A stretch of 64,000 bases of DNA, from positions 11,829-75,828 of IMG/VR virus record IMGVR_UViG_3300042898_000786. The stretch is one strand, 5' to 3'. Source of the stretch: a virus. Below are positions 2,926 through 42,717 of this stretch, one piece after another. Each line of letters opens with the position of its first letter. Within the stretch, counting starts at the first letter, position 1. The notes under the pieces were generated by a model. The model saw only the letters and a list, made by a program, of their open reading frames with translations, ran no database searches and was not told the origin of the DNA. The position numbers and the translations under genes were made by a program.

Positions 2926-3750
2926 ATGTCAACTCAAAGAAAAGTCCGCACGGACGCATACGGTCCCACTGGACCATTAACCCAATCAGAAGTCGAAAAG
3001 TCTTCTCAATCGCTGTCTCACGAAGCTCTTATCAAAAAGCTAGACACAGCATCACGCAAAACAAAAGTTTACTCAGTAGTTAACGCCGGCGGAATCTGGT
3101 ATAAGATTCGCAGTATTGCCACTACTAAAAACCCTATACGACAGATTCGTTTTTGCCCTAATGAGCCTTCTATCTACGTAGATGAACAATCTCAGTACGC
3201 AATCTTAGAGGCTGTGGTGTTTCGCGAAGGAACGCTTATGGCTACGGCTGACCAGCCCAACCTTCAGGACTTTATGGATGCCCACCCTGACAATGTGGCC
3301 AACGGAGGCAGCTCTTTCTATGTTATTGATTTGGAGCACGACGCTGAAGATGAGCTCGATATTGAATTCCTTGTCCACGATGCTGTATCTATGGTCCGCG
3401 ATACGGAGCTAGACGGTCTTTTACCTGTGGCTATGTTCTTAAACATTGACCCAAAGAAACCAAGTGTAGAGATTCGTCGTGAGCTTTTAAGCCACGCTAA
3501 GGCCAACCCAAAGGCATTCATTGAGATGTTCGACAATCCTATTGTTAAGGTTAAGGCTATAATCATACAAGCTGTAGACTTCCAGATTCTAAAGATTAAC
3601 TCTGAGAGTATGCGCTGGCACGACAATAACCAAGTGATTATCACGACTCCAGCTGGTCAAGATACTCTTGATGTGATGGCTCGTTTCTGCCTCACTGACA
3701 AAGGTGCTCTTGTATATGCTGAGATTACCAATAGGCTTTCGAAGCTGTAG
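2926..3750 (+). CDS. Conserved virion-module protein downstream of the capsid gene
   Basis: 274-aa ORF in the structural operon. Confidence 0.6.
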   Translation: MSTQRKVRTDAYGPTGPLTQSEVEKSSQSLSHEALIKKLDTASRKTKVYSVVNAGGIWYKIRSIATTKNPIRQIRFCPNEPSIYVDEQSQYAILEAVVFREGTLMATADQPNLQDFMDAHPDNVANGGSSFYVIDLEHDAEDELDIEFLVHDAVSMVRDTELDGLLPVAMFLNIDPKKPSVEIRRELLSHAKANPKAFIEMFDNPIVKVKAIIIQAVDFQILKINSESMRWHDNNQVIITTPAGQDTLDVMARFCLTDKGALVYAEITNRLSKL

Positions 3751-4558: not shown

Positions 4559-5361
4559 TGGCAAGGAATATAGTAACACTGTCCCAGGTAATATCTAACT
4601 TCAAAATATTAAACGAAGCTGATAGTTACTGTGCTGGAACAAGCGACACCGTAATTAGAGCTCTTGCTCTACGCGGAATCCGAGAGATGGGATTCGATAT
4701 GATGAAGCGAATCCGTTCGCTACGTTTACCAGTAAACACCTCTCTGAGTACAGTAGACCTGCCGGATGATTTTGTTGACCTCACTAAGATTGGATACGTA
4801 GGACTTGATGGCCTAGTATATGTGTTCGGTGAGAATAAGAATATTAACTATTCACAATCATACGTTATGCCAATGATTGATTCAGATGGCGATGGCGTGT
4901 ACGACAGGGAGGATGATAAGGATTTATCTGGTTCGTCTTCAGGCATCCAAAGTGGTCAGGAGTCATTCTTATTTAACAACTATCTGTACGGAAATACGTA
5001 CGGAGCTCTGTACGGTCTTGGTGGCGGTCAGTATAGCGGTCAGTACCGACTAAACCTTGACCAGAACAGAATTGAAATATTTCCCGCTGGAGGTGCTAAC
5101 GAGGTTGTCATCGAATACATTGCCGACGAAGCCCGTTCATCTAATCCTAGTGTACACATATACTTAGAGCCAGCTTTAAACTCATACATATACTATAAGA
5201 TTGTAGAGCGTAAGGCTATCGTCCCGTCTAACGAAAAGGCTAGGGCAAGGCAAGAATACTATAACGAAAAAAGAATTGCTAATTCAAGGATAAAAAGCTT
5301 TAGCAAGGAAGAGGCGCTTAAGACTATTCGCAAGAACTTCAAGCAATCTCCTAAGTATTAA
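4558..5361 (+). CDS. Tail tubular/ring protein (P22 gp4-like)
   Basis: V.LPDDFV...KIG motif and YIYYKI..RK C-terminus; coupled to the previous gene. Confidence 0.6.
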   Translation: MARNIVTLSQVISNFKILNEADSYCAGTSDTVIRALALRGIREMGFDMMKRIRSLRLPVNTSLSTVDLPDDFVDLTKIGYVGLDGLVYVFGENKNINYSQSYVMPMIDSDGDGVYDREDDKDLSGSSSGIQSGQESFLFNNYLYGNTYGALYGLGGGQYSGQYRLNLDQNRIEIFPAGGANEVVIEYIADEARSSNPSVHIYLEPALNSYIYYKIVERKAIVPSNEKARARQEYYNEKRIANSRIKSFSKEEALKTIRKNFKQSPKY

Positions 5362-22380: not shown

Positions 22381-22791
22381 CTACGGTAAGGTATGCAGTA
22401 AGGCTGTTGCCTTGACTAAGTAACCTATAGAGGTATCCTTATCGCCTCCCTTTACGTCTTTGCGGTGATGGTGTTCATCACATATTACTTTTAACCGAGC
22501 GGTGGCGATTATGATGCTATACATAACGTCTTCAGATGTATAGTGCCCTTGGGCTATTAGTTGTTTGTTAGCTTGTTTTGTAGCGGCTATCAGACACCAG
22601 AACTTTGCTTCTGTAGTAATAATCCCCGAAGGCTTACCTCTTGATTCGTATTCTATGTAGAAGTTGCCGGACCAGTGTGTGCCGAAGTCAAACTTTACTT
22701 CGATTGTGTGGTCAGACAACATCTTGCCGAGGGCATTCTCTCCAACTTGACCAAGCTTTAGGTCGTACCGAAAATCGCTATTATAATCCAT
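22381..22791 (-). CDS. PD-(D/E)XK-family nuclease-like protein
   Basis: G..GE...IEVK.D...GNFYIEYES.GKPSGI.TT.A motif. Confidence 0.6.
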   Translation of the reverse strand: MDYNSDFRYDLKLGQVGENALGKMLSDHTIEVKFDFGTHWSGNFYIEYESRGKPSGIITTEAKFWCLIAATKQANKQLIAQGHYTSEDVMYSIIIATARLKVICDEHHHRKDVKGGDKDTSIGYLVKATALLHTLP

Positions 22792-23579
22792 TACAGCTTA
22801 TCTACAATCATATATGAGTCTAGGTCCTTGCCCTCAATAAAGAATGTCTTAAAACGCTCTATAGCCAGCTCTACCTTCTGCTCTCCATCAAATAGGAACT
22901 GCTCTGACACGGTAAATAATCCTATGTCTAAACTCTTCTTATCTATAGCTATAAAGTAGAAGTCTTTTACTCCAAATATCTGCGTATAGATATAGGCTTG
23001 CATATCATACCCGTACTTACGTGCGGAGAATCGAAAGTTAGAACTAAGGTCTGTTGTCGTCTTGATGTCAGCGATAAAACCTTCCTCTAGATTAAGGATG
23101 TCAGCCTTAGCCCTAAACGGAATACCAGATAGCATACCCACTCCCGGCTTCTCGAACATCGCCCCCTCTAGGTATTTACTTACTATTTCATTGCGATTAA
23201 ACGCACCTACAATTCTCATAGCTGAGTCGTACTCTGCTGAGGTAACAACGTCCTTCTTAGACGCCTCCTTAAGCTCTTTAAAAGCCTTTGTAGTCTTTCC
23301 CTTGGTACTGGATATATCGAACCTATTTTCGAGCTCGTGAGGCTCTAAAATCATCGTATGAATAAGCTTACCCATAAGGAGAGCTGGAGAATCCTCCTTC
23401 TGTCCATACTTAGTTACGTAGTAGTAAGTCTTAGGGGATTCTAAGAGCATCTTACACGCAGAGGATGATAGAGCGTGCTTGCCGAGATGGCCATAGTAGA
23501 AGTCGTCATCTACCATTAGACTCAAAAGGTCTGGAGCGTTATACTCCTCGCCGTTGAGTAGTGTTATAATATCTTTCAT
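22791..23579 (-). CDS. RecE/exonuclease VIII-like PD-(D/E)XK exonuclease
   Basis: LSSS..K.LL.SP, G...H..ILEP, RAKAD, DIKTT, YGY.MQA.IY motifs. Confidence 0.8.
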   Translation of the reverse strand: MKDIITLLNGEEYNAPDLLSLMVDDDFYYGHLGKHALSSSACKMLLESPKTYYYVTKYGQKEDSPALLMGKLIHTMILEPHELENRFDISSTKGKTTKAFKELKEASKKDVVTSAEYDSAMRIVGAFNRNEIVSKYLEGAMFEKPGVGMLSGIPFRAKADILNLEEGFIADIKTTTDLSSNFRFSARKYGYDMQAYIYTQIFGVKDFYFIAIDKKSLDIGLFTVSEQFLFDGEQKVELAIERFKTFFIEGKDLDSYMIVDKL

Positions 23580-31455: not shown

Positions 31456-31749
31456 TTATTTATTGATTGGGCGATAGCCTATGTTATAAAGGGTATCGGT
31501 ATCTGCGGCTAGGAGTGCCTCGACTCCGCGTTTGATTGCGTTGTAAGCGACTTCAATGTCATTGTCGGTCTTCATATTCTTATATAGTACATCAAGTTGT
31601 GACTCGAGGTCTTTTATGAGATTGTTGACTGCTCGTTTGATATTGTGACGATACAGCGGTGTGGCCTGCAATTCATCAAGCAGTTCGAGTTGAACTTGCA
31701 TAATGATTAGCAGCTTCACGAGTTTTAGTTCTATGCTTAATTCGCTCAT
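31456..31749 (-). CDS. Hypothetical protein
   Basis: 97-aa helical ORF with A-rich leader. Confidence 0.6.
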   Translation of the reverse strand: MSELSIELKLVKLLIIMQVQLELLDELQATPLYRHNIKRAVNNLIKDLESQLDVLYKNMKTDNDIEVAYNAIKRGVEALLAADTDTLYNIGYRPINK

Positions 31750-31792
31750 TTCTATTTTCTTTTTTGTACATTTAACATTAAATTAACATTCT

Positions 31793-31936
31793 ATGAAGAA
31801 ACTTTTATTGGTTTTAGCAGCATTAATTGCTACATCTTGCGCCTCAGTAACTCCAAACAGCTTTAGTACTTTGACGAGCTGTGGCGTGGGTGGGTGTACA
31901 AATCTGACAATACATCATCACGTTTTTTTTGAGTAG
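31793..31936 (+). CDS. Small lipoprotein (47 aa), antisense to the surrounding operon
   Basis: MKKLLLVLAALIATS-CASVTPNSFSTLTSCGVGGCTNLTIHHHVFFE; clear signal peptide II; not in the supplied ORF track. Confidence 0.6.
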   Translation: MKKLLLVLAALIATSCASVTPNSFSTLTSCGVGGCTNLTIHHHVFFE

Positions 31937-32051
31937 ACTTTTTGTCTTTCCCTAATAAGCGAGGCATATTTATTACAATCCATCGGCAGAAGTCTTTGGA
32001 ATCTAGCTCGTTTAGTTTGTCTTCGACTTCTTCAATTGCTGTCTTATTCAT
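31863..32051 (-). CDS. Hypothetical protein
   Basis: MNKTAIEE... start resembles other small early genes (MKKTAVE, MKKTPMQ). Confidence 0.45.
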   Translation of the reverse strand: MNKTAIEEVEDKLNELDSKDFCRWIVINMPRLLGKDKKSTQKKRDDVLSDLYTHPRHSSSKY

Positions 32052-32309
32052 TTTATTTGTCAACTTATTGGTTTATATTTTGGTTAGCGGTGTCAACCTA
32101 TTGGTTTAATAACTAGATGATTTTTATACTGTAGGTATAAGTTTGGGCGGCTATAATCATCATTAACAACGATAGAGCTTTATAATGCAAGATAAAGGGT
32201 TCATCTATATTCTGCCAAATCGGGGTTATCAAGGGTACATTTGGCAAATTATAGACAACAGCTCGGATGATTTCCGAATTAGTTCGTGACAAAAAACATA
32301 GCAGATTTG

Positions 32310-32609
32310 TTACGAAGGTTCGTTCCAATCACTATACTTAAGCCCCCACTGTAGGTTAATCCACTGCATTTCTTTCTCGGCTAAGGTTTTGTTTAGCTTG
32401 AGATTCTTACGCAGGTAGTCCGTGCCCCAGGCCTTCCACTGGTCACCCTGATTCACAGTCATAGTCCACTCGGTCCACCAGTTGTCGGTTCTACCCTTGA
32501 TGTCTTCGTAGGTAACATTATGTCCGGCAATAACAAACATCTGATTAAGTAAATCAATCACCGCTTGCTCACGCTTTTGGTCTCGGGTTAGTCTTTTTTT
32601 AGTTTCCAT
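32310..32609 (-). CDS. Hypothetical protein
   Basis: 99-aa Trp-rich ORF in the operon. Confidence 0.65.
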   Translation of the reverse strand: METKKRLTRDQKREQAVIDLLNQMFVIAGHNVTYEDIKGRTDNWWTEWTMTVNQGDQWKAWGTDYLRKNLKLNKTLAEKEMQWINLQWGLKYSDWNEPS

Positions 32610-32941
32610 AGTTCGTATGTGCTGTTTAACGTGTTGAATTTAATATAATCCTCTCGCTCCTCCAAAATTTCTGTAACAGGGCTAGTTTGCCAAGTAAAAA
32701 ACTGGTTAAATGGAGACATAATTAGTGAATAACCAATTGCTGGTTTATCGTGACGGGCTTTAAACTTATTTTCTCCATTCCATTCAACCCACATCACTTC
32801 CTTAGATTGGTTGGTTAGTCCGTCTCGTTCACGAACTAATTTCCAATTGAATTCGTTTTCAATTACATTTTGTTCAAGAGCAACTTTCAAGACATTATCT
32901 TCTAATGTCATTGGAATTTTAGTTTGTTTTAACTTGCTCAT
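32588..32941 (-). CDS. Hypothetical protein (cassette gene)
   Basis: ATG supplied by junction repeat 1; WQTSPVTEILE...FNT.NSTY.L motif. Confidence 0.7.
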   Translation of the reverse strand: MSKLKQTKIPMTLEDNVLKVALEQNVIENEFNWKLVRERDGLTNQSKEVMWVEWNGENKFKARHDKPAIGYSLIMSPFNQFFTWQTSPVTEILEEREDYIKFNTLNSTYELWKLKKD

Positions 32942-32953
32942 TTCTCGTTGGTG

Positions 32954-33106
32954 TTAAGGGTTAAGCAATAGCCAAACGCCAAACCACAGGTGCAATATAA
33001 TTGACCCAATAGCGCCAAACATTTTTGGTAACTCTTTTTGTTTTGACGCTGTTACGCCTGCGCCTACTGCTCCGAGAAGGAGGTAGATTGCGATAATTGT
33101 TTTCAT
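32954..33106 (-). CDS. Small two-TM membrane protein (50 aa, cassette gene)
   Basis: MKTIIAIYLLLGAVGAGVTASKQKELPKMFGAIGSIILHLWFGVWLLLNP; start and stop both lie inside junction repeats. Confidence 0.65.
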   Translation of the reverse strand: MKTIIAIYLLLGAVGAGVTASKQKELPKMFGAIGSIILHLWFGVWLLLNP

Positions 33107-33354
33107 TTCTCTTTGGTTTTAAATCGTAAACTGTAGTATTCTTCTGCGATGCCGCTATTAGGGTCGAGGTGCTGCATTTCCATACCTGTGTGGAATGACT
33201 CTATGATTTCAGCCATCTCTTTCTCAAGCATTGATTCTGCCTCATCAATTACATTAGACAATGCTTTTTGATAACCAGTCTGCCACTCATTTGATGCGGT
33301 CATTTGTTCTGCCTTAAGACTTTGAATAAGTTCTTGCATTGGTGTCTTCTTCAT
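33103..33354 (-). CDS. Hypothetical protein (cassette gene, ends KTKEK)
   Basis: MKKTPMQELI...; stop inside repeat 2. Confidence 0.65.
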   Translation of the reverse strand: MKKTPMQELIQSLKAEQMTASNEWQTGYQKALSNVIDEAESMLEKEMAEIIESFHTGMEMQHLDPNSGIAEEYYSLRFKTKEK

Positions 33355-33388
33355 AAGCAAATTTATTTGCGGTGAGGAGCCTTGCGAC

Positions 33389-33529
33389 TCATTTCTCGTT
33401 GGTTTTAAGCATTTCGTTTAGTTCAAGCATCAACTCAAATGTGTCAATGAGTTCATCAGTTGGTTCATCCTCCCGATGTATTAAACTTTGAGGCATTCCT
33501 ATTTCTATAATTTCAAGTATCCTTTTCAT
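33389..33529 (-). CDS. Hypothetical protein (46 aa, cassette gene, ends KTNEK)
   Basis: Translated by hand; runs repeat to repeat. Confidence 0.6.
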   Translation of the reverse strand: MKRILEIIEIGMPQSLIHREDEPTDELIDTFELMLELNEMLKTNEK

Positions 33530-33541
33530 TTATCGTTGGTG

Positions 33542-33760
33542 TTAAAGGTTTTCAATTTCAAAATATTCATAATATTCCTTAACCTCTTTTTTGGTTAATG
33601 CCTTTACCCAATCTTTACTTGCGTACAACGGCATTGATTTTCTCCCGTGAGGTTCTACTACAATTTCATCTATGTCGCATTGTGATTGCAATTCTACATC
33701 AGATATTGATGCAAGAACCCATACCAATGTTTGATTTTTAATTTCGTCAGTTATTTTCAT
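33542..33760 (-). CDS. Hypothetical protein (cassette gene)
   Basis: Starts in repeat 5 and stops at the TAA of repeat 4. Confidence 0.65.
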   Translation of the reverse strand: MKITDEIKNQTLVWVLASISDVELQSQCDIDEIVVEPHGRKSMPLYASKDWVKALTKKEVKEYYEYFEIENL

Positions 33761-33948
33761 TTCTCGTTGGTTTTGTATTCTTTATCAAAAGAATCTGCAA
33801 TCTCACGGGTGGTCAAATCTCCGTACTTGAAAGCGAAGTCAATCATCTGCTCCTTCTCAATTCTTTTTGCTTCTCTAATATCAAGTGGTGTGATTGTACC
33901 TTGCATCTCCCACATATTAACAAGCCACTCTACTGCTGTTTTTTTCAT
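33757..33948 (-). CDS. Hypothetical protein (cassette gene, MKKTAVEWL...EKEQMIDFA, ends KTNEK)
   Basis: Small-protein pattern typical of Bacteroidota phages; stop inside repeat 5. Confidence 0.7.
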   Translation of the reverse strand: MKKTAVEWLVNMWEMQGTITPLDIREAKRIEKEQMIDFAFKYGDLTTREIADSFDKEYKTNEK

Positions 33949-34006
33949 CTCTCTAAAATTTAATTGGTTTTGTTTGCCCTCATTTAACCGCATCAGGCTT
34001 CTCGGT

Positions 34007-34168
34007 TTATTTCTCTTTGGTGTTAGTCTTCCACTGGTATTCGCACTTGCCGTCCTTAATAGGTGAGTTCATAAAGTAGGATTGATACATATCTTCGGAG
34101 GCAGTGAATCGGTAGCAGGTCATCTTGAGGTCGCAATTTGCGCCACTACATTTAGTTATGTCGGTCAT
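34007..34168 (-). CDS. Small Cys-rich protein (53 aa, cassette gene, ends NTKEK)
   Basis: MTDITKCSGANCDLKMTCYRFTASEDMYQSYFMNSPIKDGKCEYQWKTNTKEK. Confidence 0.7.
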   Translation of the reverse strand: MTDITKCSGANCDLKMTCYRFTASEDMYQSYFMNSPIKDGKCEYQWKTNTKEK

Positions 34169-34259
34169 TTTTATTTAATTTAAAAGAAAAAGACTCCGTT
34201 AATCAGGGCGGTAGCTTGCCGCTTACTGAATCCTAATGCGCCATAAGCGGGCGGAGTTC

Positions 34260-34388
34260 TCATTTCTCTTTGGTGTTAAATTCATTTTCAGTATAGAAGT
34301 CCGTGCCTTCGTTGTCTTCTGGTTCGATGCCATTCTTAATCATATCAACGATTAACAACAGCTCGGTCATTGTCAGTTCTATTTTCAT
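34260..34388 (-). CDS. Hypothetical protein (42 aa, cassette gene, ends NTKEK)
   Basis: Translated by hand; ATGA-coupled to the upstream gene; stop inside repeat 7. Confidence 0.6.
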   Translation of the reverse strand: MKIELTMTELLLIVDMIKNGIEPEDNEGTDFYTENEFNTKEK

Positions 34389-34651
34389 TCTTCTTCGTCG
34401 TTATATTCTGGGTAGTGTTCACCGGTGTTGCCATTCTGCATAATCACAATCATACGTTCGTCAAGTCTCTCCTGCTCTAGCAGGTCTTCTTGCTTTACCC
34501 TAGCGATGCAGCAGGGCTTACGGAGTTCATTATAAGCAATCTCGGTTTTCCAAGGTGGGCAGTTGCATTGGTTGTCGACGCTATCTTGGCTATCACCTGG
34601 GTCATCCCAGAAAACAAACTTCATATCTGAGCCGGGGCCTTTATTAGTCAT
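34385..34651 (-). CDS. Hypothetical protein
   Basis: ORF with ERM.VIMQNGNTGEHY motif; start uncertain. Confidence 0.55.
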   Translation of the reverse strand: MTNKGPGSDMKFVFWDDPGDSQDSVDNQCNCPPWKTEIAYNELRKPCCIARVKQEDLLEQERLDERMIVIMQNGNTGEHYPEYNDEEE

Positions 34652-34973
34652 AATCGATTCTATTTTTATAAATGATGTCTTCAACAATAGTCTTAGCGTC
34701 TATGGTTCCGAGCCTTATTGCATCGGCGTGGTCTTTTGCACGTATAACGACAAAATTATCGTTAGCCTTGCCTAGAACCAACAACGACAAAAAGTTTGGC
34801 ATTATCGAATTCATAAACGGGTCAAAGTTAAGCATACTGCCATCGCTTGTAGCAACCGCAATACCCATAACATATTCTTTATCGCCTTTCTTAAAAACAA
34901 AAATGGGGGACTTATCCGATAACGGAATCATCCCCCACTCAAGGCATAGCAGTCTCGAAATCGAGAGTTGCAT
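34644..34973 (-). CDS. Hypothetical protein
   Basis: 109-aa ORF coupled to the upstream gene. Confidence 0.55.
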   Translation of the reverse strand: MQLSISRLLCLEWGMIPLSDKSPIFVFKKGDKEYVMGIAVATSDGSMLNFDPFMNSIMPNFLSLLVLGKANDNFVVIRAKDHADAIRLGTIDAKTIVEDIIYKNRIDYD

Positions 34974-35224
34974 TAGAACGGCATATCGTCGTTGCTGCTT
35001 TGCTTAATGCTTACAGCACCTTTAGATGATGGGTCCCAAACACTCATAATTGTGTATGGCTTTTTGCTCTCTTTCGCTACGCCGGAACGTACCGTTAGAA
35101 ATGCACGACCCTTCTCGGTCATATTCCTTTGAAGGGTTTCGATATCTTGCTTTGAGAGCGAGAATCGCAGGTTAAGAGTGGGCGACTCAACGTAGCCGAC
35201 CATCTCGTCTTTCTTATCTTGCAT
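34973..35224 (-). CDS. Putative small single-stranded DNA-binding protein
   Basis: C-terminal acidic DDMPF tail like SSB; near the annealing protein gene. Confidence 0.55.
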   Translation of the reverse strand: MQDKKDEMVGYVESPTLNLRFSLSKQDIETLQRNMTEKGRAFLTVRSGVAKESKKPYTIMSVWDPSSKGAVSIKQSSNDDMPF

Positions 35225-35241
35225 AAGACTTGGGGTTTTGG

Positions 35242-35535
35242 TTAATTAAAAAGAAAATTTTTGTACGATACGTAAGTATCTCGGTACACATTGTCAGACT
35301 CGATGAGTTGGTCGTGGCGGTCAAGGTAATAAATGATTAGCGGATGCTTTAGACCAGTAATCTCAGAAATTGTAGCGTTGGTAATACCTTGGTTACGAAT
35401 TAAGAAGTTAACGAGCATAATGCGAGCCGTTACGACGCGCCTACGGGCGGACTTAGACATCGAGTCGACACCAAAGTATTTATTGCTTCCAGAGATGAAG
35501 CCTTCAATTTGTTCTGGAATCGACTGAACTATCAT
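35242..35535 (-). CDS. DnaA domain IV-like HTH protein (second paralog)
   Basis: SARRRVVTAR.ML...T...I....G.KH..IIY pattern. Confidence 0.55.
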   Translation of the reverse strand: MIVQSIPEQIEGFISGSNKYFGVDSMSKSARRRVVTARIMLVNFLIRNQGITNATISEITGLKHPLIIYYLDRHDQLIESDNVYRDTYVSYKNFLFN

Positions 35536-36071
35536 TTTACGAACTTCTCTAGAGCCAAGACTTGCTTCTCAGAGAATTTATCTCCGTACTTAGTGACGAC
35601 TTGACTATAGGCTTCGCGCTTATTACTAGCAGCCTTGATGTAGTTGACAGACTTTTCGAACAGAGTCTCCTCCTTCTCGGGCTCAGATGCCTCTGTAACT
35701 TGCTGCGGGGCTTCTTGCTTAGCAATCGCTGTCTCTACCTCGTCGGCAGTAGCGATTGAAGTGTCGATGCCTATACCTAGCATACCTAGGGCCCGCCCAA
35801 CGGCAGAGGTTTCGCAGTTCTCGATATACGATGTTCTGTTGATGTTTGAAGATGACTTCTCCTCGTGAGCAAAGCCCGTACTGACTATCCTGCCAGCCTC
35901 ATCACGTACCACGGCACGGATAATTACTGACTCGCTATCAACGGCGTATATCTCGGTCTCAAGACTCATACTCTTGAACTCGGGAAGAGCACGAAACGCT
36001 TTGACACGCTCGTTAACCTCAACGTATTGCTTGCCCTTGATGTTGGTTGTTTTGAATTTATGTTGTGACAT
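35532..36071 (-). CDS. Single-strand annealing recombinase (Sak/Rad52-like)
   Basis: IKGK.YV.VNERV..FR, TG.A.E, S.IENCETSAVGRAL motifs. Confidence 0.7.
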   Translation of the reverse strand: MSQHKFKTTNIKGKQYVEVNERVKAFRALPEFKSMSLETEIYAVDSESVIIRAVVRDEAGRIVSTGFAHEEKSSSNINRTSYIENCETSAVGRALGMLGIGIDTSIATADEVETAIAKQEAPQQVTEASEPEKEETLFEKSVNYIKAASNKREAYSQVVTKYGDKFSEKQVLALEKFVK

Positions 36072-36089
36072 ATTGATTTAATTTGAATA

Positions 36090-36097
36090 CAAATATA
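36090..36097 (-). promoter_or_regulatory. Bacteroidota -7 element (TATATTTG)
   Basis: Upstream of the 36071 start. Confidence 0.6.
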
Positions 36098-36112
36098 AGA
36101 AAGGTTGAAGCA

Positions 36113-36250
36113 TTACACAATAGCGGAACGCTTTTTTTGTCGCTCTAGAAAGTCGACCCACATACGTGCAGCAACTGCGCGACGTTGTAGTAGGAATGGA
36201 TATTTGGTTTTTAGTCTCGCCATAGCGATACGCATAAATTGGTCTCTCAT
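36113..36250 (-). CDS. Small basic protein (45 aa)
   Basis: MRDQFMRIAMARLKTKYPFLLQRRAVAARMWVDFLERQKKRSAIV, translated by hand. Confidence 0.6.
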   Translation of the reverse strand: MRDQFMRIAMARLKTKYPFLLQRRAVAARMWVDFLERQKKRSAIV

Positions 36251-36260
36251 TGATTTTTAA

Positions 36261-36422
36261 TTATAGTAGTTGATACCTGTCCATAAGACCCATAGAGGCT
36301 GTCCCTAGTAGCATCAGCAGAAAAGAATTGATTAAGTTGCCGTCTAGCATAGAAGCCACACTAAGCAGAAAAAAGATTGTTATGAGTGTGAATCCAATCT
36401 TCTTGAATGTGGCCTTACTCAT
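36261..36422 (-). CDS. Small two-TM membrane protein (53 aa)
   Basis: Hydrophobic ORF ATGA-coupled to the upstream gene. Confidence 0.55.
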   Translation of the reverse strand: MSKATFKKIGFTLITIFFLLSVASMLDGNLINSFLLMLLGTASMGLMDRYQLL

Positions 36423-36745
36423 AATTTTATATTGAATGATAGTTCTATGTTTCCATCTTGATACCTACCGACGAGTTTGAAGTCATCGGTTTCTGGCAAC
36501 TGCTTGTCAAAGCCGTCGTAAGTTATAGCGTAGTTCTCCTTGTAGAAGTACTCCACCTCAGCATCGACAATGCCGTCTTCGTCAATAGATATAAACACGA
36601 TGTACGTGATGTCTCCGTCTTCGTGTAGCATCGAATGCCAATTACCTTTTGGGGATATTGACACCTTGTGTTTCTTGCCGTTGTGTTCAAAGCATACTAA
36701 GAACTCAGCGGCCAAGAATGTTTCTTCGGGGATAATCATAGTCAT
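36419..36745 (-). CDS. Hypothetical protein
   Basis: Acidic ORF; likely start MTMIIP after the terminator. Confidence 0.55.
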   Translation of the reverse strand: MTMIIPEETFLAAEFLVCFEHNGKKHKVSISPKGNWHSMLHEDGDITYIVFISIDEDGIVDAEVEYFYKENYAITYDGFDKQLPETDDFKLVGRYQDGNIELSFNIKL

Positions 36746-36766
36746 AGGGTTTCTTGTAAAAATAAG

Positions 36767-36790
36767 AAAAAGAGCGGGGTTTCCCCCGCC
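36767..36790 (-). terminator. Rho-independent terminator
   Basis: Minus strand GCGGGG GAAA CCCCGC TCTTTTT. Confidence 0.7.
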
Positions 36791-36793
36791 CAT

Positions 36794-37696
36794 TTATGCC
36801 ATATCAGCAAGCAGTTCGTAGACGCGTTGGTCGGTCTTCTGAAGCGAGCCTGCCATCTTAGAGGAGTCTCGGCTATCATTACGGCCGGCCTTGTGGCTAG
36901 TGTAGTGAGTCACACCCGAGAACAAGCCCCATAAGTTGTCACCTTTGTACGACATCTCACGAGTGATAGACGTTACTAGGTCACGTGCTTGGTTGAGTCG
37001 GCGAGTAGAGTACTCGTCATTAGCGACGCTCCTAGTCTTCAAGATATCGACACCGACAACAGCATCTACAACTTTCTGAATCTGACGCTCGTTGGTACGC
37101 ACGTCTACCATCTTGCGGAACATATCGTATAGGGTAGCATCAGCCTCCCTAATGCCCTTGATGGCACGTAGTGAGTCCTCAACGGCCTTTCGCATATTCG
37201 CGGTATGTCGTACGCTATCCTTTAGGCTACGTGATGCAGCGTTAAAAGTGTTAGAGCACGAGATGGTAACGCTAGAGGCGCCCCATCTTAGCGCAGTCGT
37301 TCCGTCGTGGCTGTTGATTGCCGTGGCGTAACGCTTTACAAGGTCACCACCTACTCTTTCATCCTCCATAGGGACTTGTAGGTATACCTTGCCACCTCCG
37401 TTGAATAAGCCTCCGCGTACTACGTCTACACCGAGTACTTGCCCTACCTCTTGGACGAGGTCGCTGAGTTCGTTGTTCTGAAATACTTCGTACTGCTGAG
37501 TGGCGGTGGTGAATACTTTCTCCGTGTCTTTGCGAACGATGCCGAAGAAACCCGACTCAGTACCCGACGGCAGGAGAAGAGGTTGCTTTTCTACATCCCA
37601 ATTGAGGCCGAAGCGGTCAAGGATGTCAGCGGTGTTTTTAGCAGATACGAATGAGTTGTGTGTGTCAACGAGTTGACCGAATTGATTGATTTCCAT
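36794..37696 (-). CDS. DUF932-family protein
   Basis: GL.W.V.K.PL, Y.V.QN, NSHDG, C.NT, RHT, LWG.F.GVT.Y..H motifs. Confidence 0.85.
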   Translation of the reverse strand: MEINQFGQLVDTHNSFVSAKNTADILDRFGLNWDVEKQPLLLPSGTESGFFGIVRKDTEKVFTTATQQYEVFQNNELSDLVQEVGQVLGVDVVRGGLFNGGGKVYLQVPMEDERVGGDLVKRYATAINSHDGTTALRWGASSVTISCSNTFNAASRSLKDSVRHTANMRKAVEDSLRAIKGIREADATLYDMFRKMVDVRTNERQIQKVVDAVVGVDILKTRSVANDEYSTRRLNQARDLVTSITREMSYKGDNLWGLFSGVTHYTSHKAGRNDSRDSSKMAGSLQKTDQRVYELLADMA

Positions 37697-37718
37697 TTTA
37701 TTTGAGTTTTTAAATTAA

Positions 37719-38246
37719 TTATTTTGATAGTCTTTCTTTAGCATTATTAAACATCTCCTCCATATTACGGAGAGACGCGGTGTCGGGAGTATTCTCCCAA
37801 TCGCGAAGCATTATCTGCTTCACGTCTTCGAATGTGCAGTCTTTCTTCATCGTCATAACGAGTGTCTCTAGTTGTACTTGAAACTCGTCTAGGTTATTGA
37901 AGAAGAAGTACTCATAGAACTGAAGGCAAAAGTCGAAGTCTTTTCCGTTCTCGTAGTACGTATGCCCAGCAAAACACACACCTATCTCGTCATACTCAAG
38001 GCGTATGGAGACGGAGTGCTTACTTGATATCTCTTTGAGCATATCGTGTGGTGGTACCCAAGCACTAGGCCCGCTTACCATAAGGATGATGTCATCCCTC
38101 TCGATAGAATCTATCTTCCATCTAGGAGGCTCCGTCTCAAGACCCGTATCTCTACGTTCCTTGTGCGCTTTGAATATCTCAGAGACGGCATCTAGTTCTG
38201 AATCTTGGCCGTGTATGACTAAGAAGTTATTACATAGGTTTGGCAT
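37719..38246 (-). CDS. DUF1281/YubB ferredoxin-like protein
   Basis: MPN.C.N.L.I.G start, SAW.PP, Y.E.G.CF.G motifs. Confidence 0.7.
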   Translation of the reverse strand: MPNLCNNFLVIHGQDSELDAVSEIFKAHKERRDTGLETEPPRWKIDSIERDDIILMVSGPSAWVPPHDMLKEISSKHSVSIRLEYDEIGVCFAGHTYYENGKDFDFCLQFYEYFFFNNLDEFQVQLETLVMTMKKDCTFEDVKQIMLRDWENTPDTASLRNMEEMFNNAKERLSK

Positions 38247-38352
38247 TATCGATTTGTTTTTGCAGTTCTTTGATTTTATCTTGAAGTTCTTTGTTGTAAT
38301 CCTCAAGGGCTTTGATTCGATGCATTAAATACATTGTTTGTGAGTCTACCAT
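38230..38352 (-). CDS. Small coiled-coil protein (40 aa)
   Basis: MVDSQTMYLMHRIKALEDYNKELQDKIKELQKQIDNAKPM with A-rich leader. Confidence 0.55.
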   Translation of the reverse strand: MVDSQTMYLMHRIKALEDYNKELQDKIKELQKQIDNAKPM

Positions 38353-38375
38353 TTGTTTATTTGTTTTTAAAGTAA

Positions 38376-38410
38376 AGTGAAAATAAGGAGCCGTGCCTCC
38401 TTATCTCACC
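38376..38410 (-). terminator. Stem-loop / probable terminator
   Basis: Minus strand GTGAGATAAGGAG GCACGG CTCCTTATTTTCAC followed by TTTACTTT. Confidence 0.55.
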
Positions 38411-38442
38411 AAACAAAATATCGTTACACGGACGATTGTACA

Positions 38443-39012
38443 TTAGGACAATGCTGTTTTTAGTTGCTCTCGAGTCATATCTGCCTCGTCTGCTAGCCAA
38501 TTTAGGAACGTGTCAACTTGATTGACACGCACTACGATATCAGTAGCGGTAGAGAACACGTTGCTAGTCTGAGCGAATATGAACCATACGGGTACGGGAG
38601 GAATCAGTTTGCCATCCGCGATGTTCTCGAAGAACTCGTTGAAGTCCCACTTCCACTTTACGTCATCCCACGAGCCTGTAGACCACCCATTGGCGATACA
38701 CTCGTATCCATCAGCAAGTTCTACGTTTACATACCCACGCCAAGCGCTAGTAGACTTCCACTCTGCACTCTTGATGCATTGCGGTGGGCCGTCAACTTCC
38801 TCGCAGTCTTCATAGTCTCGGGTCTTGTCTAGGCTATAAGCGTAGTCGGTTCTGACTAACTGCTCATCAAGATTGTACTCGTACACCTTAACGGATGACT
38901 CCCAATGAGAGTAGTAGCAGTCCTCGCATAGCACGTTGTCTTCCTTGTCATAGTTGGAATAGTCGTTCTCTGAAATCTCGTAGTCGCAGTTACTGCATTT
39001 ATTGGTTTCCAT
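38443..39012 (-). CDS. Hypothetical protein with N-terminal CxxC...CxxC zinc finger
   Basis: CSNC...CEDC; W.STSAWRGY motif. Confidence 0.7.
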   Translation of the reverse strand: METNKCSNCDYEISENDYSNYDKEDNVLCEDCYYSHWESSVKVYEYNLDEQLVRTDYAYSLDKTRDYEDCEEVDGPPQCIKSAEWKSTSAWRGYVNVELADGYECIANGWSTGSWDDVKWKWDFNEFFENIADGKLIPPVPVWFIFAQTSNVFSTATDIVVRVNQVDTFLNWLADEADMTREQLKTALS

Positions 39013-39496
39013 CTTCTGATTCTTTTATGGTGATAAACGCAGACTTGAGGTCTTCGCCTAGATTAATTATTTGACGTTCTATGATTGTGAAATCAATAAG
39101 TTTGTTTAGCGTTGAGTCATCATTCGCCTCCTTAAACTTTACTGCACTCCGCAAAAAGACAGCATAAGATGCTAGCAAAGAGCGCATACTTGTATCTTCG
39201 ATGCTATCTGCAAATTTAGCAAGCATTTGAGGCTTTGAGTCTTTCTTCGGCTTTCTACCTCGGATATGCTTTAGGTCGTGGTCGGCCACATACCAACCGC
39301 ATCCTTCTCTTATAGTAATACCCTCGTTGTTACCTTTGTGCCCATTCACATCCTCGTCAAACTCAATGAGAAACGATGTCTCTGATTCGGCAAAGACTAT
39401 CGTTGCTTGTTTGCCGATTGCCTCGGGCGCACTTGGTGCGCTTGTCGCACTTCTAGGATTATAGACCACGCGGTCTCCAGTTTTAAATGTTTTCAT
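38999..39496 (-). CDS. Hypothetical protein with SH3-like N-terminal domain
   Basis: FK.GDRV...IEFDE.V.GH...G.GW.V pattern; ATG preceded by the repeated leader AAACAAATAGAAATT. Confidence 0.65.
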   Translation of the reverse strand: MKTFKTGDRVVYNPRSATSAPSAPEAIGKQATIVFAESETSFLIEFDEDVNGHKGNNEGITIREGCGWYVADHDLKHIRGRKPKKDSKPQMLAKFADSIEDTSMRSLLASYAVFLRSAVKFKEANDDSTLNKLIDFTIIERQIINLGEDLKSAFITIKESEDGNQ

Positions 39497-39509
39497 AATT
39501 TCTATTTGT

Positions 39510-39734
39510 TTATAATTGGTGTTCGGTAATGTATAGTCGGATGGTTTGGTAGTCATCTACCTCAACAAAGTATTCGGACTCTTCATCGCAGTATACTTGT
39601 TTGATTTCGTGCCTTTCATTTATTGACTTCTTAGTTGAGTCAAAGAAGTACTGCGCTGCACTTTTTGCGCCAAAGGCTTCGTGGTCATTAAGGTCGAGGT
39701 CGGAATGAGTCTCGTGAAGGATGTAGAATTTCAT
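39510..39734 (-). CDS. Hypothetical early protein
   Basis: 74-aa ORF with A-rich leader. Confidence 0.6.
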   Translation of the reverse strand: MKFYILHETHSDLDLNDHEAFGAKSAAQYFFDSTKKSINERHEIKQVYCDEESEYFVEVDDYQTIRLYITEHQL

Positions 39735-39753
39735 AGTTGTTATTGTTTATTAG

Positions 39754-40170
39754 TTATTGAATCGTGAACCAATCTTCGTCCATATTGAACTCATCGATTT
39801 GTGCTTGACTAACGAACGCTTCGCAGTACCACGAATCGCCTCCGTCACTATTGCTAGTTAGGTCTGCCGATACGTTACTACCTAGCAAGGTTTCCCACTC
39901 ACGGGTGAAGTCGTTAAGGTCTTCCTCAGTTCCGACAAAGTATGTCCACACTCGAAGTTCATTTGCTTCTTCGTGGCCTCCCTCCATCACTACTATATTG
40001 CCTAACTCTAGCACTTTCTTGAGTTCTTCCTCACTAGTAATTAGCGCCTCATTCAGTTCATCATTAAGTTCAAATAGTGGTACACTATTGGTTGCCCATA
40101 GAGCCAAGGCTAGGTCGGTTACGTTTACGAATGTGAATCCGTCTTCAGTTTTAATTATTCGATTTTCCAT
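39754..40170 (-). CDS. Hypothetical acidic early protein
   Basis: 138-aa ORF with leader AACAAATAGAAACT. Confidence 0.65.
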   Translation of the reverse strand: MENRIIKTEDGFTFVNVTDLALALWATNSVPLFELNDELNEALITSEEELKKVLELGNIVVMEGGHEEANELRVWTYFVGTEEDLNDFTREWETLLGSNVSADLTSNSDGGDSWYCEAFVSQAQIDEFNMDEDWFTIQ

Positions 40171-40189
40171 AGTTTCTATTTGTTATTGA

Positions 40190-40399
40190 TTAAAGTTCTA
40201 AAACTGCTAGTGAAAGGTTGCCCTCTCGGTCAAACCATCCCTCCTTGATTAAGGCGGTGGCAGTTCGGCCATAGTGGCCTTGAAGTTCCCAAGCCAAGCC
40301 ACTACGGACTAGTTCGGCAAAGAGGCACACGACTTCTTGGTCGTTGAGTGCGCCTTGTTCGTATGCGATGATGTTCGCGATTTGTGATGTGTTGTTCAT
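40190..40399 (-). CDS. Conserved small phage protein (IIAYEQG...LAW.LQGHYGR.A..LI..G)
   Basis: Recognisable phage motif; starts 21 nt after the cut site of hammerhead 1. Confidence 0.75.
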   Translation of the reverse strand: MNNTSQIANIIAYEQGALNDQEVVCLFAELVRSGLAWELQGHYGRTATALIKEGWFDREGNLSLAVLEL

Positions 40400-40414
40400 A
40401 CTGATTATCTATTT

Positions 40415-40466
40415 GGTTAAGATGCCTCACGGCATTTCGGCTAATGTCAAGCCTCTTCAGTTAACC
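40415..40466 (-). ncRNA. Type I hammerhead ribozyme (HHR1)
   Basis: GGUUAA CUGAAGA GGCU-UGACAUU-AGCC GAAA UGCC-GUGA-GGCA UC^ UUAACC; full catalytic core and three perfect stems; predicted cut between 40421 and 40420. Confidence 0.93.
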
Positions 40467-40643
40467 TTTGTTTTGCTCCACAAACTTTTCTAAAATGTCG
40501 AGAAGTTCGTCACCACATTTGTCTAACCTATCTTGAAGTTCGGGCGAAAGGTCGCTTGACTCAAGGTTGAATTCCTCGCACACTGAGTCGAACAGCAAAT
40601 CAATTTGAGAGGTAAGGATTCCGTAGATATTTTCGTTTTTCAT
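40461..40643 (-). CDS. Acidic 60-aa protein flanked by two hammerheads
   Basis: A-rich leader after the HHR2 cut site; its TAA stop is part of HHR1 stem I. Confidence 0.7.
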   Translation of the reverse strand: MKNENIYGILTSQIDLLFDSVCEEFNLESSDLSPELQDRLDKCGDELLDILEKFVEQNKG

Positions 40644-40658
40644 AATTTCTATTTGTTT

Positions 40659-40709
40659 GGTTAAGACCTACCGAAGTAGGTTTCGGGCATTAGCCCTCAT
40701 CAGTTAACC
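40659..40709 (-). ncRNA. Type I hammerhead ribozyme (HHR2)
   Basis: GGUUAA CUGAUGA GGGC-UAAU-GCCC GAAA CCUAC-UUCG-GUAGG UC^ UUAACC; canonical GUC site; predicted cut between 40665 and 40664. Confidence 0.95.
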
Positions 40710-40888
40710 TGCCACTCAGTAAGCGTAGTCCAACCGAATGCCGTCACGATACCGCGCCTCTGAAGTTGTTCTAGAACTTTGTACTCTTTAGTGGTATCTG
40801 CACCCAAGACAGACTCTACGCTATAAAAGGGTATGTCGGTTGCGATGCCGTCAACATACTCGCGGAAAAAGAAATTGTAAGTGTTCAT
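40700..40888 (-). CDS. Hypothetical early protein (62 aa)
   Basis: Its TGA stop is within the CUGA core of HHR2. Confidence 0.6.
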   Translation of the reverse strand: MNTYNFFFREYVDGIATDIPFYSVESVLGADTTKEYKVLEQLQRRGIVTAFGWTTLTEWQVN

Positions 40889-40917
40889 ATTGTTTGGATT
40901 TAGTTATTGAATTGTGT

Positions 40918-41274
40918 TTAGTTTTGGTCTCTATGGATTACGTTCACCAACTGAATGGCGGCATTGTCACCGATAAATTCACGGGCAGTGAGGTATGCCT
41001 CTGTGCGGCTCACTCGCAGTCCTCCTAAGAGGAAGTCGAATAGTGTGCCGTTCGTACTTTCTACGCTACGTACAAATACCGACTGATTGGTCAGTAATTT
41101 CATTAGCGACTTCACTAATTCAGCCTTGGTGTCGAACGCTTTTCGGGCGCTCCCTTGGCGAAGATTACCGACTTGTAGGAGTTTAGTGGTCTCTGCCTTG
41201 TCGGTGTAACGAATCAAGAATTCTACTTCGCGAGTTGTCTTTTTGCTTTGTAGTCTAACTTTGAACTCTCCCAT
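40918..41274 (-). CDS. First early protein (118 aa), hypothetical
   Basis: ATG at 41274 (MGEFKV) after an A-rich leader; the longer track start runs into the tRNA-like element. Confidence 0.65.
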   Translation of the reverse strand: MGEFKVRLQSKKTTREVEFLIRYTDKAETTKLLQVGNLRQGSARKAFDTKAELVKSLMKLLTNQSVFVRSVESTNGTLFDFLLGGLRVSRTEAYLTAREFIGDNAAIQLVNVIHRDQN

Positions 41275-41310
41275 TTTGATTTGATTTTTGAATTGATAAA
41301 AGAAAATTTG

Positions 41311-41358
41311 AGAGGGCGTTTGGTCTCGAACCAACGGCAACTAAATTGCTACGCCCCC
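41311..41358 (-). ncRNA. tRNA-like element lacking the anticodon arm
   Basis: 7-bp acceptor stem GGGGGCG/CGCCCUC, U8A9, short D-like hairpin GCAA-UUUAG-UUGC, T arm UUGG-UUCGAGA-CCAA. Confidence 0.6.
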
Positions 41359-41359
41359 A

Positions 41360-41757
41360 ATTGAACATCAACTTAGGGGTACCTTATCGTGTCGTTATGT
41401 GCAGTGATGCCGTGGTTCCACCGCAACGAGGTTGTCAGTCCTAAGAAGCACTAAGGAGCAGATGAGCATCGTTGTATCCGTGTAGCATATGTTCTAAGAA
41501 CTCATACGACCAAGGTCGCTCCGCTACACATCAACAAACCCGAACTCCATCACCACTCAGTAGCCGTACGTACATCAAAGTGCCGTGCGGTCATCTACCT
41601 AGTCGTGCGGAACTCCGCTCGCTTAGTGGTCACTATGGTTATGGGTTCAAGCCCCAAGGCACGCTTTTCGCTTACCATCTTCCTCGGCCCGCCTTACGGC
41701 TTCGTCCTCGAGGTGACCTCAACTCGTTTCCCTATTTGGGCGCAGTCGGTCGGTGAC
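41360..41757 (-). ncRNA. Candidate large structured ncRNA / early-operon leader
   Basis: No credible minus-strand ORF; GC-rich with many hairpins and long-range pairings; lies directly after a promoter. Confidence 0.5.
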
Positions 41758-41761
41758 ACTG

Positions 41762-41793
41762 CAATACTACAACAATCTAGATACGTTTGTCAA
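41762..41793 (-). promoter_or_regulatory. Putative major early promoter
   Basis: TTGACA-N18-TAGTATTG (near TAnnTTTG), pointing into the early operon; predicted TSS about 41757. Confidence 0.6.
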
Positions 41794-42717
41794 GTGTTGT
41801 TCAAAAAATAATTGTAAGTTGCTGAGAATCAGCGAGAAAAATTTCCACTCTGAATTATAATGTGTCTCTTACGCGTGTCATATTAATATACTAGCACCTG
41901 AGAACATAAGCCTAGCCTAGCAAGCACGTGCCGCTCTAGTATGCATTGAGCGTAGTGGGGGGAAGTGGGTTGAAGTGGGAGTAAGTGAGAGTGCTTAGGG
42001 GTAAGGTGTGGGGATTGTTGGAGGGTTCTGAGGTACTCGAACCATAACCCAAAACTAGTTGGCGGTAGGGTAGGAGCGGAGCCTACAACGGAGCCAATTA
42101 ACATAATATATATTATAGGATGCTTTTGGACACCGATTGCAACTCCGATACTAGAGCGAGGTAGGTCAAGGATAGTAGCACGTCCTAGTATGGCTACCAA
42201 AAGGCTAAAACATTGCAAGTGAATCATTTAACACGGAGGGGCATACGTTCAGCATTCCGTTTCGGTTCTTGGCTTGTAACGCTATTATAGTACGATAATC
42301 CCCACGGTACGTATAACTCAAACCAGAAATGCGATAACCGCATCCCGGAAGATTGCGTAATTCTGTTCAACACATATGCTTGTCCTTTGCAATGTGAACA
42401 GATTCTTATGTTATTTCTCGGAAGCGCATAGTTGCGCCTTTGCAAACGTAGTAAAAGTTAGAGCCTTGTTTGCAGTATCCGAATCAAGCTTTGGCCGGCT
42501 CCTTTTGCGCGGGGCGGTTTGGCCGCCCGCTTTTTCCGCCGTCTTAAGCGTTCTATTCGTTTTCGGTATTAGAAGCTTGCAGTCTATTAAGAGGAAGCTC
42601 TGCTTTAGCGAAGTTATAGTTAAAAATCGACATTAGCAAGTTTTTTACACACACTTATAATAGTCGTTATCAATTAGTTGACTAATAACCTACTAATTTA
42701 GTATGTGTTTATTCTGC

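Follow-up and report, generated by a model that had tools for sequence, protein, structure and literature searches.

In the current study, we analyzed a 64,000-nt stretch of the IMG/VR virus record IMGVR_UViG_3300042898_000786 (positions 11,829 to 75,828; hereafter the window), in which seven small genes, termed cassettes A to G, stand in a row on the minus strand between two conserved flank genes, X and H, and are separated by copies of a single short sequence, here termed the joint. The joint is a stop/start element that is conserved at the level of the nucleotides, and gain, loss and reordering of cassettes take place at its copies, where the breakpoints between related phages lie. The array belongs to the minus-strand early/replication module, in which it begins 1.3 kb downstream of the gene for a 179-aa protein, and its GC content (37.7%) is the lowest in the window.

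Searching the window with the pattern TTAAMACCAAMGAGAAATGA and allowing up to three mismatches returned exactly seven matches, all on the minus strand (Table 1; the match within joint R4 starts at 33526), with start-to-start spacings of 165, 286, 137, 231, 250 and 253 nt. By chance, 0.04 matches are expected in dinucleotide-preserving shuffles, and none of 100 shuffles reached seven. No copy was found elsewhere in the whole 75.8-kb record, all of them lying within the 1.3-kb stretch of the array. These are the copies and spacings that an earlier note, made from the letters of the window alone, had described, and its counts were likewise reproduced from the open reading frames (ORFs): the repeat supplies the stop of the upstream gene at 7/7 copies and the start of a real downstream ORF at four of them (cassettes D, E and G and the 117-aa flank gene H). 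The C-termini are also as described there, with five proteins ending in (N/K)T(K/N)EK and two stopping at the leading TAA in another frame. The length needs correction: the note spoke of a 20-bp junction repeat, whereas the conserved unit, judged by the consensus of the listed instances, is ~28 nt.

As for the functions of the cassette proteins, Pfam, PHROGs and the protein atlas returned only "hypothetical" entries. Cassette A had no family match in Pfam or PHROGs; an identical protein is encoded by the relative L007 at another array position, and two paralogues of cassette B occur in the same relative. The terminator-like hairpin (Table 1) travels with cassette B, with an identity of 100% in L007 and of 92% in L009, a relative that is otherwise almost without nucleotide similarity to the window. 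The earlier note had called the ORFs unrelated, which is true of C and F in that they show no direct similarity to each other, but the two share one family under single linkage. This family of ~76-aa proteins has 72 members at no fewer than 45 loci (window 33103-33354 and 33757-33948, L078 223-415 and L083 14319-14529 among them), extends to 100-kb and 212-kb phage contigs, and finds only viral hypothetical clusters in the protein atlas. Its members stand upstream of 37 of 123 junctions (~30%) among the matches listed, and its C-terminus, ...ETFNTKEK, is the 28-mer translated in the TGA frame.

Table 1. Positions of the joints, cassettes, flank genes and candidate recombination genes in the window
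Feature	Position	Strand	Description
Flank gene X	34385..34651	-	Conserved, upstream of the array; 88-100 aa
Cassette A	34260..34388	-	42-aa acidic ORFan; ends NTKEK
Joint R1 (TTAACACCAAAGAGAAATGA)	34260..34279	-	TGA closes cassette A; ATG without a real gene after it
Terminator-like hairpin	34182..34257	-	ACUCCG...CGGAGU, then a U run; between R1 and cassette B
Cassette B	34007..34168	-	53 aa, Cys-rich; ends NTKEK; matches phrog_20586 (function unknown)
Joint R2 (variant CTAACACCAAAGAGAAATAA)	34007..34026	-	TAA closes cassette B; without ATG, reads ATAA
Cassette C	33757..33948	-	63 aa from MKKTAVEWL, 78 aa from upstream ATG; ends KTNEK
Joint R3	33757..33776	-	Closes cassette C (KTNEK), opens cassette D
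Cassette D	33542..33760	-	72 aa; its stop is the leading TAA
Joint R4, full 28-nt form (AAACCTTTAACACCAACGATAAATGAAA)	33524..33551	-	TAA closes cassette D, ATG opens cassette E
Cassette E	33389..33529	-	46 aa, acidic; ends KTNEK; absent from L007
Joint R5	33389..33408	-	Closes cassette E; ATG opens only 9 codons
Cassette F	33103..33354	-	83 aa; ends KTKEK
Joint R6	33103..33122	-	Closes cassette F, opens cassette G
Cassette G	32954..33106	-	50-aa hydrophobic (membrane) protein; its stop is the leading TAA
Joint R7	32938..32957	-	TAA closes cassette G; ATG opens flank gene H
Flank gene H	32588..32941	-	Conserved, downstream of the array; 117 aa, starts at the R7 ATG
Rad52-fold (Sak-type) single-strand annealing protein	35532..36071	-	179 aa; AlphaFold model and Foldseek; candidate recombination factor
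RecE-like PDDEXK exonuclease (DUF3799)	22791..23579	-	262 aa; Pfam match; candidate recombination factor

Constraint on the joint in other phages

The search of phage metagenomes that the earlier note had suggested was run as an exact 18-mer scan of IMG/VR and found the motif in at least 119 contigs, with two to eight core copies each in at least 66 contigs. From these contigs, 237 unique motif instances were taken; figures on instances, junctions and homology ends in this and the following section are counts among the matches listed. Their consensus of ~28 nt, AAACCTTTAACACCAAMGAGAAATGAAA, keeps the ATG in 93% of instances, the TGA overlapping it in 90% and the upstream TAA in 84%, and in 83% an ORF of at least 30 codons begins at the motif ATG. 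Copies are mostly spaced 120-300 nt apart, which is compatible with a single small gene per unit. Nearly all upstream ORFs (159/169) end inside the motif, 106 of them at the TGA and 53 at the TAA, while 10 read through it in the third frame. The geometry of those 159 junctions is either an ATGA overlap or TAA-N12-ATG, both of which have the stop-to-start spacing expected of termination-reinitiation.

Conservation of the flanking consensus AACCTTTAAC does not differ between the classes of upstream ORF, whether these end at the TGA (122 of 238 instances), end at the TAA (57), pass in the third frame (10) or are absent (49). Equal conservation in every frame class indicates that the constraint is on the bases, in keeping with the earlier proposal that the nucleotide sequence and not the peptide is being maintained. 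The ORFs adjacent to the motif fall into at least 127 families. Small motif arrays were also seen in contigs of 212 kb and 114 kb, both without a terminase match, and the motif occurs in a 100-kb contig with a weak terminase match (25% identity), all three of these contigs being incomplete.

A translation signal of the hosts themselves is an unlikely source of the motif, because 596 Gb of bacterial genomes gave 37 pattern matches where ~35 are expected by chance according to our own estimate, and the multi-copy matches, which lie on small contigs of metagenome-assembled genomes (Saprospiraceae, Flavobacteriaceae and one labelled Rickettsiaceae), appear to be pieces of phage genomes included in the bins. 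A nucleotide search of the 7.5-kb region against GenBank phages gave no match. Keyword searches of the available literature found no description of the joint in Bacteroidota phages, and the letters of the motif returned only an unrelated genome paper.

Changes of cassette content at the joints

The relative L007 encodes a 179-aa protein identical to that of the window, and its flanks are collinear with window positions 40467-34398 and 32957-31366 at 96-98% identity. Between the same two flank genes, where the window has its seven cassettes in the order X-A-B-C-D-E-F-G-H, L007 has ~17 cassettes in the order X-B'-A-C'-D-F-G-I-J-K-C-L-M-N-O-B-P-H. Aligning related genomes had been put forward in the earlier note as the way to see whether gene content changes exactly at the repeats, and between these two genomes, which differ in the set and the order of their cassettes, it does. 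Cassette E together with one repeat copy is an exact insertion or deletion between them, and the single D/F joint of L007 is a hybrid, taken from R4 in its left half and from R5 in its right half, which places the crossover within ACCAACGA. Each of R1, R3 and R7 has its left flank in common with one L007 junction and its right flank with another, at 77-100% identity; for example, L007 junction 9956 agrees with R1 in the 60 nt on the left (100% identity) and junction 13029 in the 60 nt on the right (100% identity), and the left and right flanks of R3 match L007 junctions 11755 and 10153, respectively. The crossover points vary, lying both within the repeat and at its edges, as expected for an exchange driven by homology.

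The same concentration of breakpoints is apparent beyond this pair of genomes. Internal ends of BLAST homology lie within 15 nt of the motif centre in 210/1008 cases (21%), relative to ~10/1008 (1%) expected for random positions, and a breakpoint is found at 62% of motif junctions, the corresponding share being 25% for the remaining gene starts and 28% for the remaining starts of small genes, though the p-values of these comparisons overstate independence because the compared contigs are related. The 123 junctions with ORFs on both sides comprise 103 distinct pairs of neighbouring families. Gain, loss and reordering of genes at the repeats, which the earlier note had proposed, are thus seen in L007, in more than 100 contigs and in variants that occur together in lake water.

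The last of these were found by mapping the Logan contigs of three lake runs onto window positions 31500-36000; as assembled contigs, they attest to the existence of forms and not to their frequency, and a gap in contig cover in run X3 or X4 does not mean that the sequence is absent. Several forms of the array coexist in one lake. The main path is supported at ~43x in run X1, and the assembly graph branches at the repeats, with loose ends at 32957, 33103, 33755, 33771, 34007 and 34281. Three joins depart from the main path: 33551>34281, which puts cassette A directly before R4 and cassette E (16.8x, X1); 34389>34009, which puts a B-type cassette ahead of A as in L007 (X1 and X3); and 32956>34262, which leaves only cassette A and a 27-nt spacer between the flanks (X3). 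Variants with one, seven or ~17 cassettes are therefore found between the same two flank genes. Run X19, which is an RNA run, yielded contigs at 35010-35821 and a 995-nt contig from a relative that spans two joints; these contigs come from a small share of the run and are not informative on transcription, RNA ends or strand.

Proposed translation restart, short homology and rival explanations

The 75.8-kb record, which CheckV rates as complete, belongs to a crAss-related, Flavobacteriia-type podophage from lake water and looks like a distant, small relative of crAss-like phages. Its large terminase shares 39-45% identity with the counterparts in Flavobacterium and Cellulophaga podophages, which are the nearest cultured relatives of the phage, and in a spring-water contig; its 1419-aa virion protein (5367-9626, plus strand) carries the crAss muzzle C-terminal domain; and a giant 3315-aa protein (11808-21755, plus strand) matches only DUF3293. 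Eighteen metagenome runs listed as DNA, most of them labelled lake water, contain 41-97% of the sampled words of the stretch. The other gene starts of the phage have A-rich leaders without a Shine-Dalgarno site, which is the rule in Bacteroidota (PMC6847099). The early module that holds the annealing-protein gene also encodes a 300-aa DUF932 protein (36794-37696, minus strand), and directly upstream of the annealing-protein gene is that of a strongly basic 45-aa protein (36113-36250, minus strand).

The reading that we favour, and regard as probable, is that the joint restarts translation and at the same time offers a short homology for the shuffling of cassettes. The ~28-nt AAACCTTTAACACCAAMGAGAAATGAAA would then be the standard joint between small early accessory genes in lake-water phages of Flavobacteriia-type hosts that do not use Shine-Dalgarno initiation. 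As RNA, it would act as a region of translation initiation that is rich in A and C, has little structure and contains stops in two frames, namely a TGA overlapping the ATG and a TAA 12 nt upstream of it. Since these stops lie on or next to the built-in ATG, a ribosome that ends the upstream gene at either of them could restart there, which would suit hosts that are unable to recruit ribosomes to internal cistrons via a Shine-Dalgarno sequence. As DNA, a joint that recurs at many gene boundaries in many phages may serve as a short homology that allows entire genes to be lost, gained or moved, each along with a single copy of the joint, and the outcome would be a hyperplastic cassette array between two conserved flank genes. 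The possibility of pairing with 16S rRNA in the manner of a termination upstream ribosome-binding site (TURBS) was also considered and rejected, as the motif scores no better than shuffled motifs against Flavobacteriales 16S rRNA (77/300 score as well).

The exchanges are presumably performed by the phage's own Rad52-like annealing protein and RecE-like exonuclease, a pair that the earlier note had pointed to. The AlphaFold model of the 179-aa protein, built from 17 relatives, has a predicted local distance difference test (pLDDT) score of 76.7, and its top Foldseek matches in the PDB are human RAD52 (E = 1e-4, probability 1.00) and yeast Mgm101, the latter with a root-mean-square deviation of 3.8 A over 88 columns, the TM-scores being low (~0.36). 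A Rad52-like fold is thus found where a Sak-like annealing protein had been suspected, and it is the model that indicates this: the protein has no match in Pfam or to the profile of a named single-strand annealing protein, a profile search of the PDB was empty, and PHROG matches were only to families of unknown function. Encoded in one module with this protein, the 262-aa product is a DUF3799 PDDEXK nuclease, some phage relatives of which are annotated as RecE or exonuclease VIII, and it is the protein most widely common to motif-bearing loci (at least 61). Rad52-like recombinases work on short and diverged homologies, and the minimal pairing segment of Red-beta is 23-27 bp (PMC3945230), a size that the 28 nt of the joint match.

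Several observations weigh against this combination of translation restart and short homology. The ATG of three of the seven window copies starts no real gene, that of R1 having only 27 codons open, across the terminator-like hairpin. In favour of the restart, fewer paired bases are predicted around the joint than at control ORF starts (0.62 vs. 0.52 unpaired, p = 2e-15), but this control set includes spurious ORFs. Position -3 of the joint is G, whereas Flavobacterium johnsoniae favours A (PMC6847099). With respect to recombination, exact identity between window copies spans only 7-18 nt, which is below the Red-beta minimum, so exchange between most pairs of window copies should be rare; among copies in L007, exact identity reaches 28 nt. 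The breakpoint statistics derive from contigs that are not independent, and the boundaries of accessory genes are prone to breakpoints anyway. Finally, ~20 bases are nearly invariant, far beyond the need of an unstructured initiation region, and this excess of information suggests that something else also constrains the joint, be it a binding factor, concerted evolution via recombination, or both; a frozen end of the abundant ETFNTKEK mini-gene family is a further candidate.

That near-invariance, in every frame, is also the main attraction of an alternative in which the joint is chiefly an operator, an RNA or DNA site where a RegA-like repressor or a host factor switches the accessory set, with recombination as a by-product. 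The motif overlaps a start codon just as the RegA operators of T4 do, and the 45-aa basic protein, conserved in at least 42 motif-bearing loci, might be a nucleic-acid binder. No candidate binder has emerged, however, that protein being without a family match in Pfam and PHROGs, and a phage-encoded binder would have to travel along with the motif to the 100-kb, 114-kb and 212-kb contigs, for which no close terminase relative was found. Nor does the genome encode a complementary RNA: a search for antisense or guide RNAs gave only the trivial opposite strand, and the best same-strand site (1121-1180) is antisense inside a structural gene. We consider the operator unlikely, and place in the same class the idea that the joint has no function in expression and is a selfish or hitch-hiking linker: exchange between co-infecting phages would be open only to cassettes with a joint, and its frequency would keep the copies alike by concerted evolution; such a linker may have originated as the frozen 3' end plus start of one tandemly duplicated mini-gene family. 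The breakpoints do concentrate at the joint, and the ~76-aa family, with the C-terminus that the 28-mer encodes and its place at roughly three in ten junctions in loci that include very large contigs, would be a possible founder. Against this stand the retention of the ATG and its use as a real start in most of the listed instances, the retention of both the TGA and the TAA, the small number of upstream ORFs (10/169) that pass through the joint in the third frame, and the many families of adjoining ORFs, all of which point to a working stop/start signal.

It is quite improbable, in our judgment, that transcription instead starts at the joint, with a phage RNA polymerase (possibly residing in the 3315-aa protein) using it as a promoter, or that the joint is an RNA processing site, either of which would give each mini-gene its own mRNA with a short leader. 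Promoters of single-subunit RNA polymerases have a comparable length and strictness of conservation, the phage is crAss-related by its muzzle-protein domain, and two hammerhead-type ribozymes in the same operon would leave a product whose start, UUAACCAAAC...AUG, resembles the joint. Yet promoters are not characterized by a fixed ATG, two in-frame stops or an A-rich second codon, no RNA polymerase domain or signature was found in the 3315-aa protein, and early transcripts made by the virion polymerase of the crAss-like phage phi14:2 have no detectable common upstream motif (bioRxiv 10.1101/2020.03.07.982082). Nothing conserved upstream of the joints could form a ribozyme, and Rfam was empty. 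An antisense Bacteroidota promoter on the reverse strand (TCTCTTTG, compared with TAnnTTTG) was rejected as well, since it is broken in 35% of copies (C at M) and has no conserved -33 element.

The likeness to integrons that the earlier note saw raises the question of a dedicated site-specific system in which a recombinase or nuclease of an unrecognised kind reads the joint. As in integrons and clusters of attC sites lacking integron-integrases (CALINs), the array consists of promoterless and largely unrelated small cassettes in one orientation, each bounded by one site, and insertions and deletions comprise one cassette plus one site; the same site moreover occurs in phages of different genome size without a detected close terminase relative. 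Both defining features of integrons are missing. As the note had also stated, neither an integrase nor attC hairpins are present: the tyrosine recombinase profile PF00589 had no match in the complete 75.8-kb genome, while 14/14 control genomes matched, and none of the seven joints has an inverted repeat or hairpin, or a conserved neighbouring sequence that could pair with the motif. An IntI-type recombinase is missing from CALINs too, but attC sites are imperfect inverted repeats that fold into hairpins, whereas the joint is part of the coding sequence and of a translation signal, and its exchange looks driven by homology, with crossovers that vary within and at the edges of the repeat and a general Rad52-type recombination pair at hand. 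We therefore regard a site-specific system as very improbable. The likeness is moreover one of analogy and not of membership, because the logic of shuffling is already known from another system, the promoter-early stem-loop (PeSL) cassettes.

PeSL cassettes, which are described from hyperplastic regions of T4-type phages (Arbiol et al. 2010, PMC2839356; PMC4122927), are the closest analogue of the joint array in logic, as regulatory repeats that shuffle small accessory genes are already known there. In those sources, short conserved expression signals flank small, mostly ORFan and non-essential early genes, close relatives differ by insertions, deletions and replacements with breakpoints at the signals, as they do in the joint array, and recombination between neighbouring copies is proposed as the driver of modular shuffling (PMC2839356). 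By the same account, a PeSL consists of a sigma70-type promoter and a terminator stem-loop located between genes, whereas the joint overlaps both coding regions and carries a stop and a start codon; inspected by eye, it has neither sigma70 boxes nor Bacteroidota-type boxes (TTTG / TAnnTTTG), and no terminator stem-loop was found in any joint, the sole hairpin, after R1, belonging to cassette B. The hosts also differ, being Bacteroidota for the joint and enterobacteria for PeSLs, for which the formation of one-repeat mini-circles has been demonstrated. Start-Associated Sequences (SAS) of Cluster K mycobacteriophages (Pope et al. 2011, PMC3203893) are likewise short asymmetric repeats in a single orientation at the start codon (mostly ATG) of non-structural genes, sometimes include the upstream stop, are essentially absent from host genomes, and have a proposed but unproven role in translation initiation (PMC3203893). 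In contrast to the joint, with its ~28 nt including the ATG and two stops, an SAS is 13 bp long, lies 3-7 bp upstream of the start and includes a Shine-Dalgarno core. SAS elements occur in a single phage cluster and were not linked to gene shuffling, whereas the joint has no GGAG core or special 16S complementarity and recurs in phage contigs of very different size. The "linker" boundary sequences that have been postulated for modular exchange among lambdoid phages are also short sequences shared at gene boundaries that would act as crossover points, and annealing proteins of the Rad52 type are able to recombine homologies that are short or diverged (De Paepe et al. 2014, PMC3945230), but in the present case one nearly invariant joint is reused at up to ~17 consecutive boundaries and doubles as stop and start.

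If the restart joint does serve as a short homology, one sequence would be both expression signal and crossover point, so that a gene placed between two joints would immediately be stopped, started and mobile, and the array would exemplify, cleanly and in nature, the long-standing "linker" model of modular phage evolution. Accessory regions of phages show the fastest turnover of host-takeover and anti-defence genes, and the movement of single small genes is poorly documented outside T4-type phages. In hosts without Shine-Dalgarno initiation, the expression of internal cistrons is itself an open problem, and the 28-mer would be a candidate standard part for polycistronic expression in Bacteroidota as well as a search handle for hundreds of phage accessory mini-genes in lake metagenomes. 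It is conceivable, though on the whole rather doubtful, that the joint is a universal connector of a gene-exchange network, in which cassettes leave as one-repeat circles or fragments and re-enter by annealing at a joint, across phage groups that share freshwater Bacteroidota hosts and range from 76-kb podophages to contigs of 100 kb and >200 kb, the joint being kept letter for letter as a host or phage factor reads it. Such a network would amount to an integron-like system built on a translation signal and a Rad52-type annealing protein in place of an integrase and hairpins.

Ribozyme-like and other elements near early gene starts

Read by eye, canonical hammerhead ribozyme layouts occur in the window at 40659-40709 and 40415-40466 (minus strand) and in L008 at 2681-2751, 3564-3634 and 4593-4663, directly before the starts of early genes. 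The layout is GGUUAA, then CUGAUGAG or CUGAAGAG, stem II, GAAA, stem III, and GUC or AUC, followed by the cleavage site and UUAACC. Rfam returned nothing in the whole window at the gathering threshold and nothing over 32500-42000 at E values up to 1. The leader that cleavage would leave, UUAACCAAAC...AGAAAUUAUG, resembles the junction motif, and hammerheads before two other genes of the same operon could be a second way to an accessible internal start.

Two more distant relatives, L011 (3943-6762) and L017 (3230-6760), whose annealing protein is ~50% identical, are without the junction motif in these regions; several of their early genes are instead preceded by conserved elements of 62-66 nt (TTAACATCCGTTAACA...CTATAGAAAC) and then a conserved A-rich leader. 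These elements may represent another class of structured RNA or ribozyme. Within the window, a looser pattern, CTTAACCAAA followed after 8-14 nt by ATG, precedes other early genes (starts 40643, 40399 and 35224, minus strand) and has the TTAAC...CCAAA part in common with the joint.

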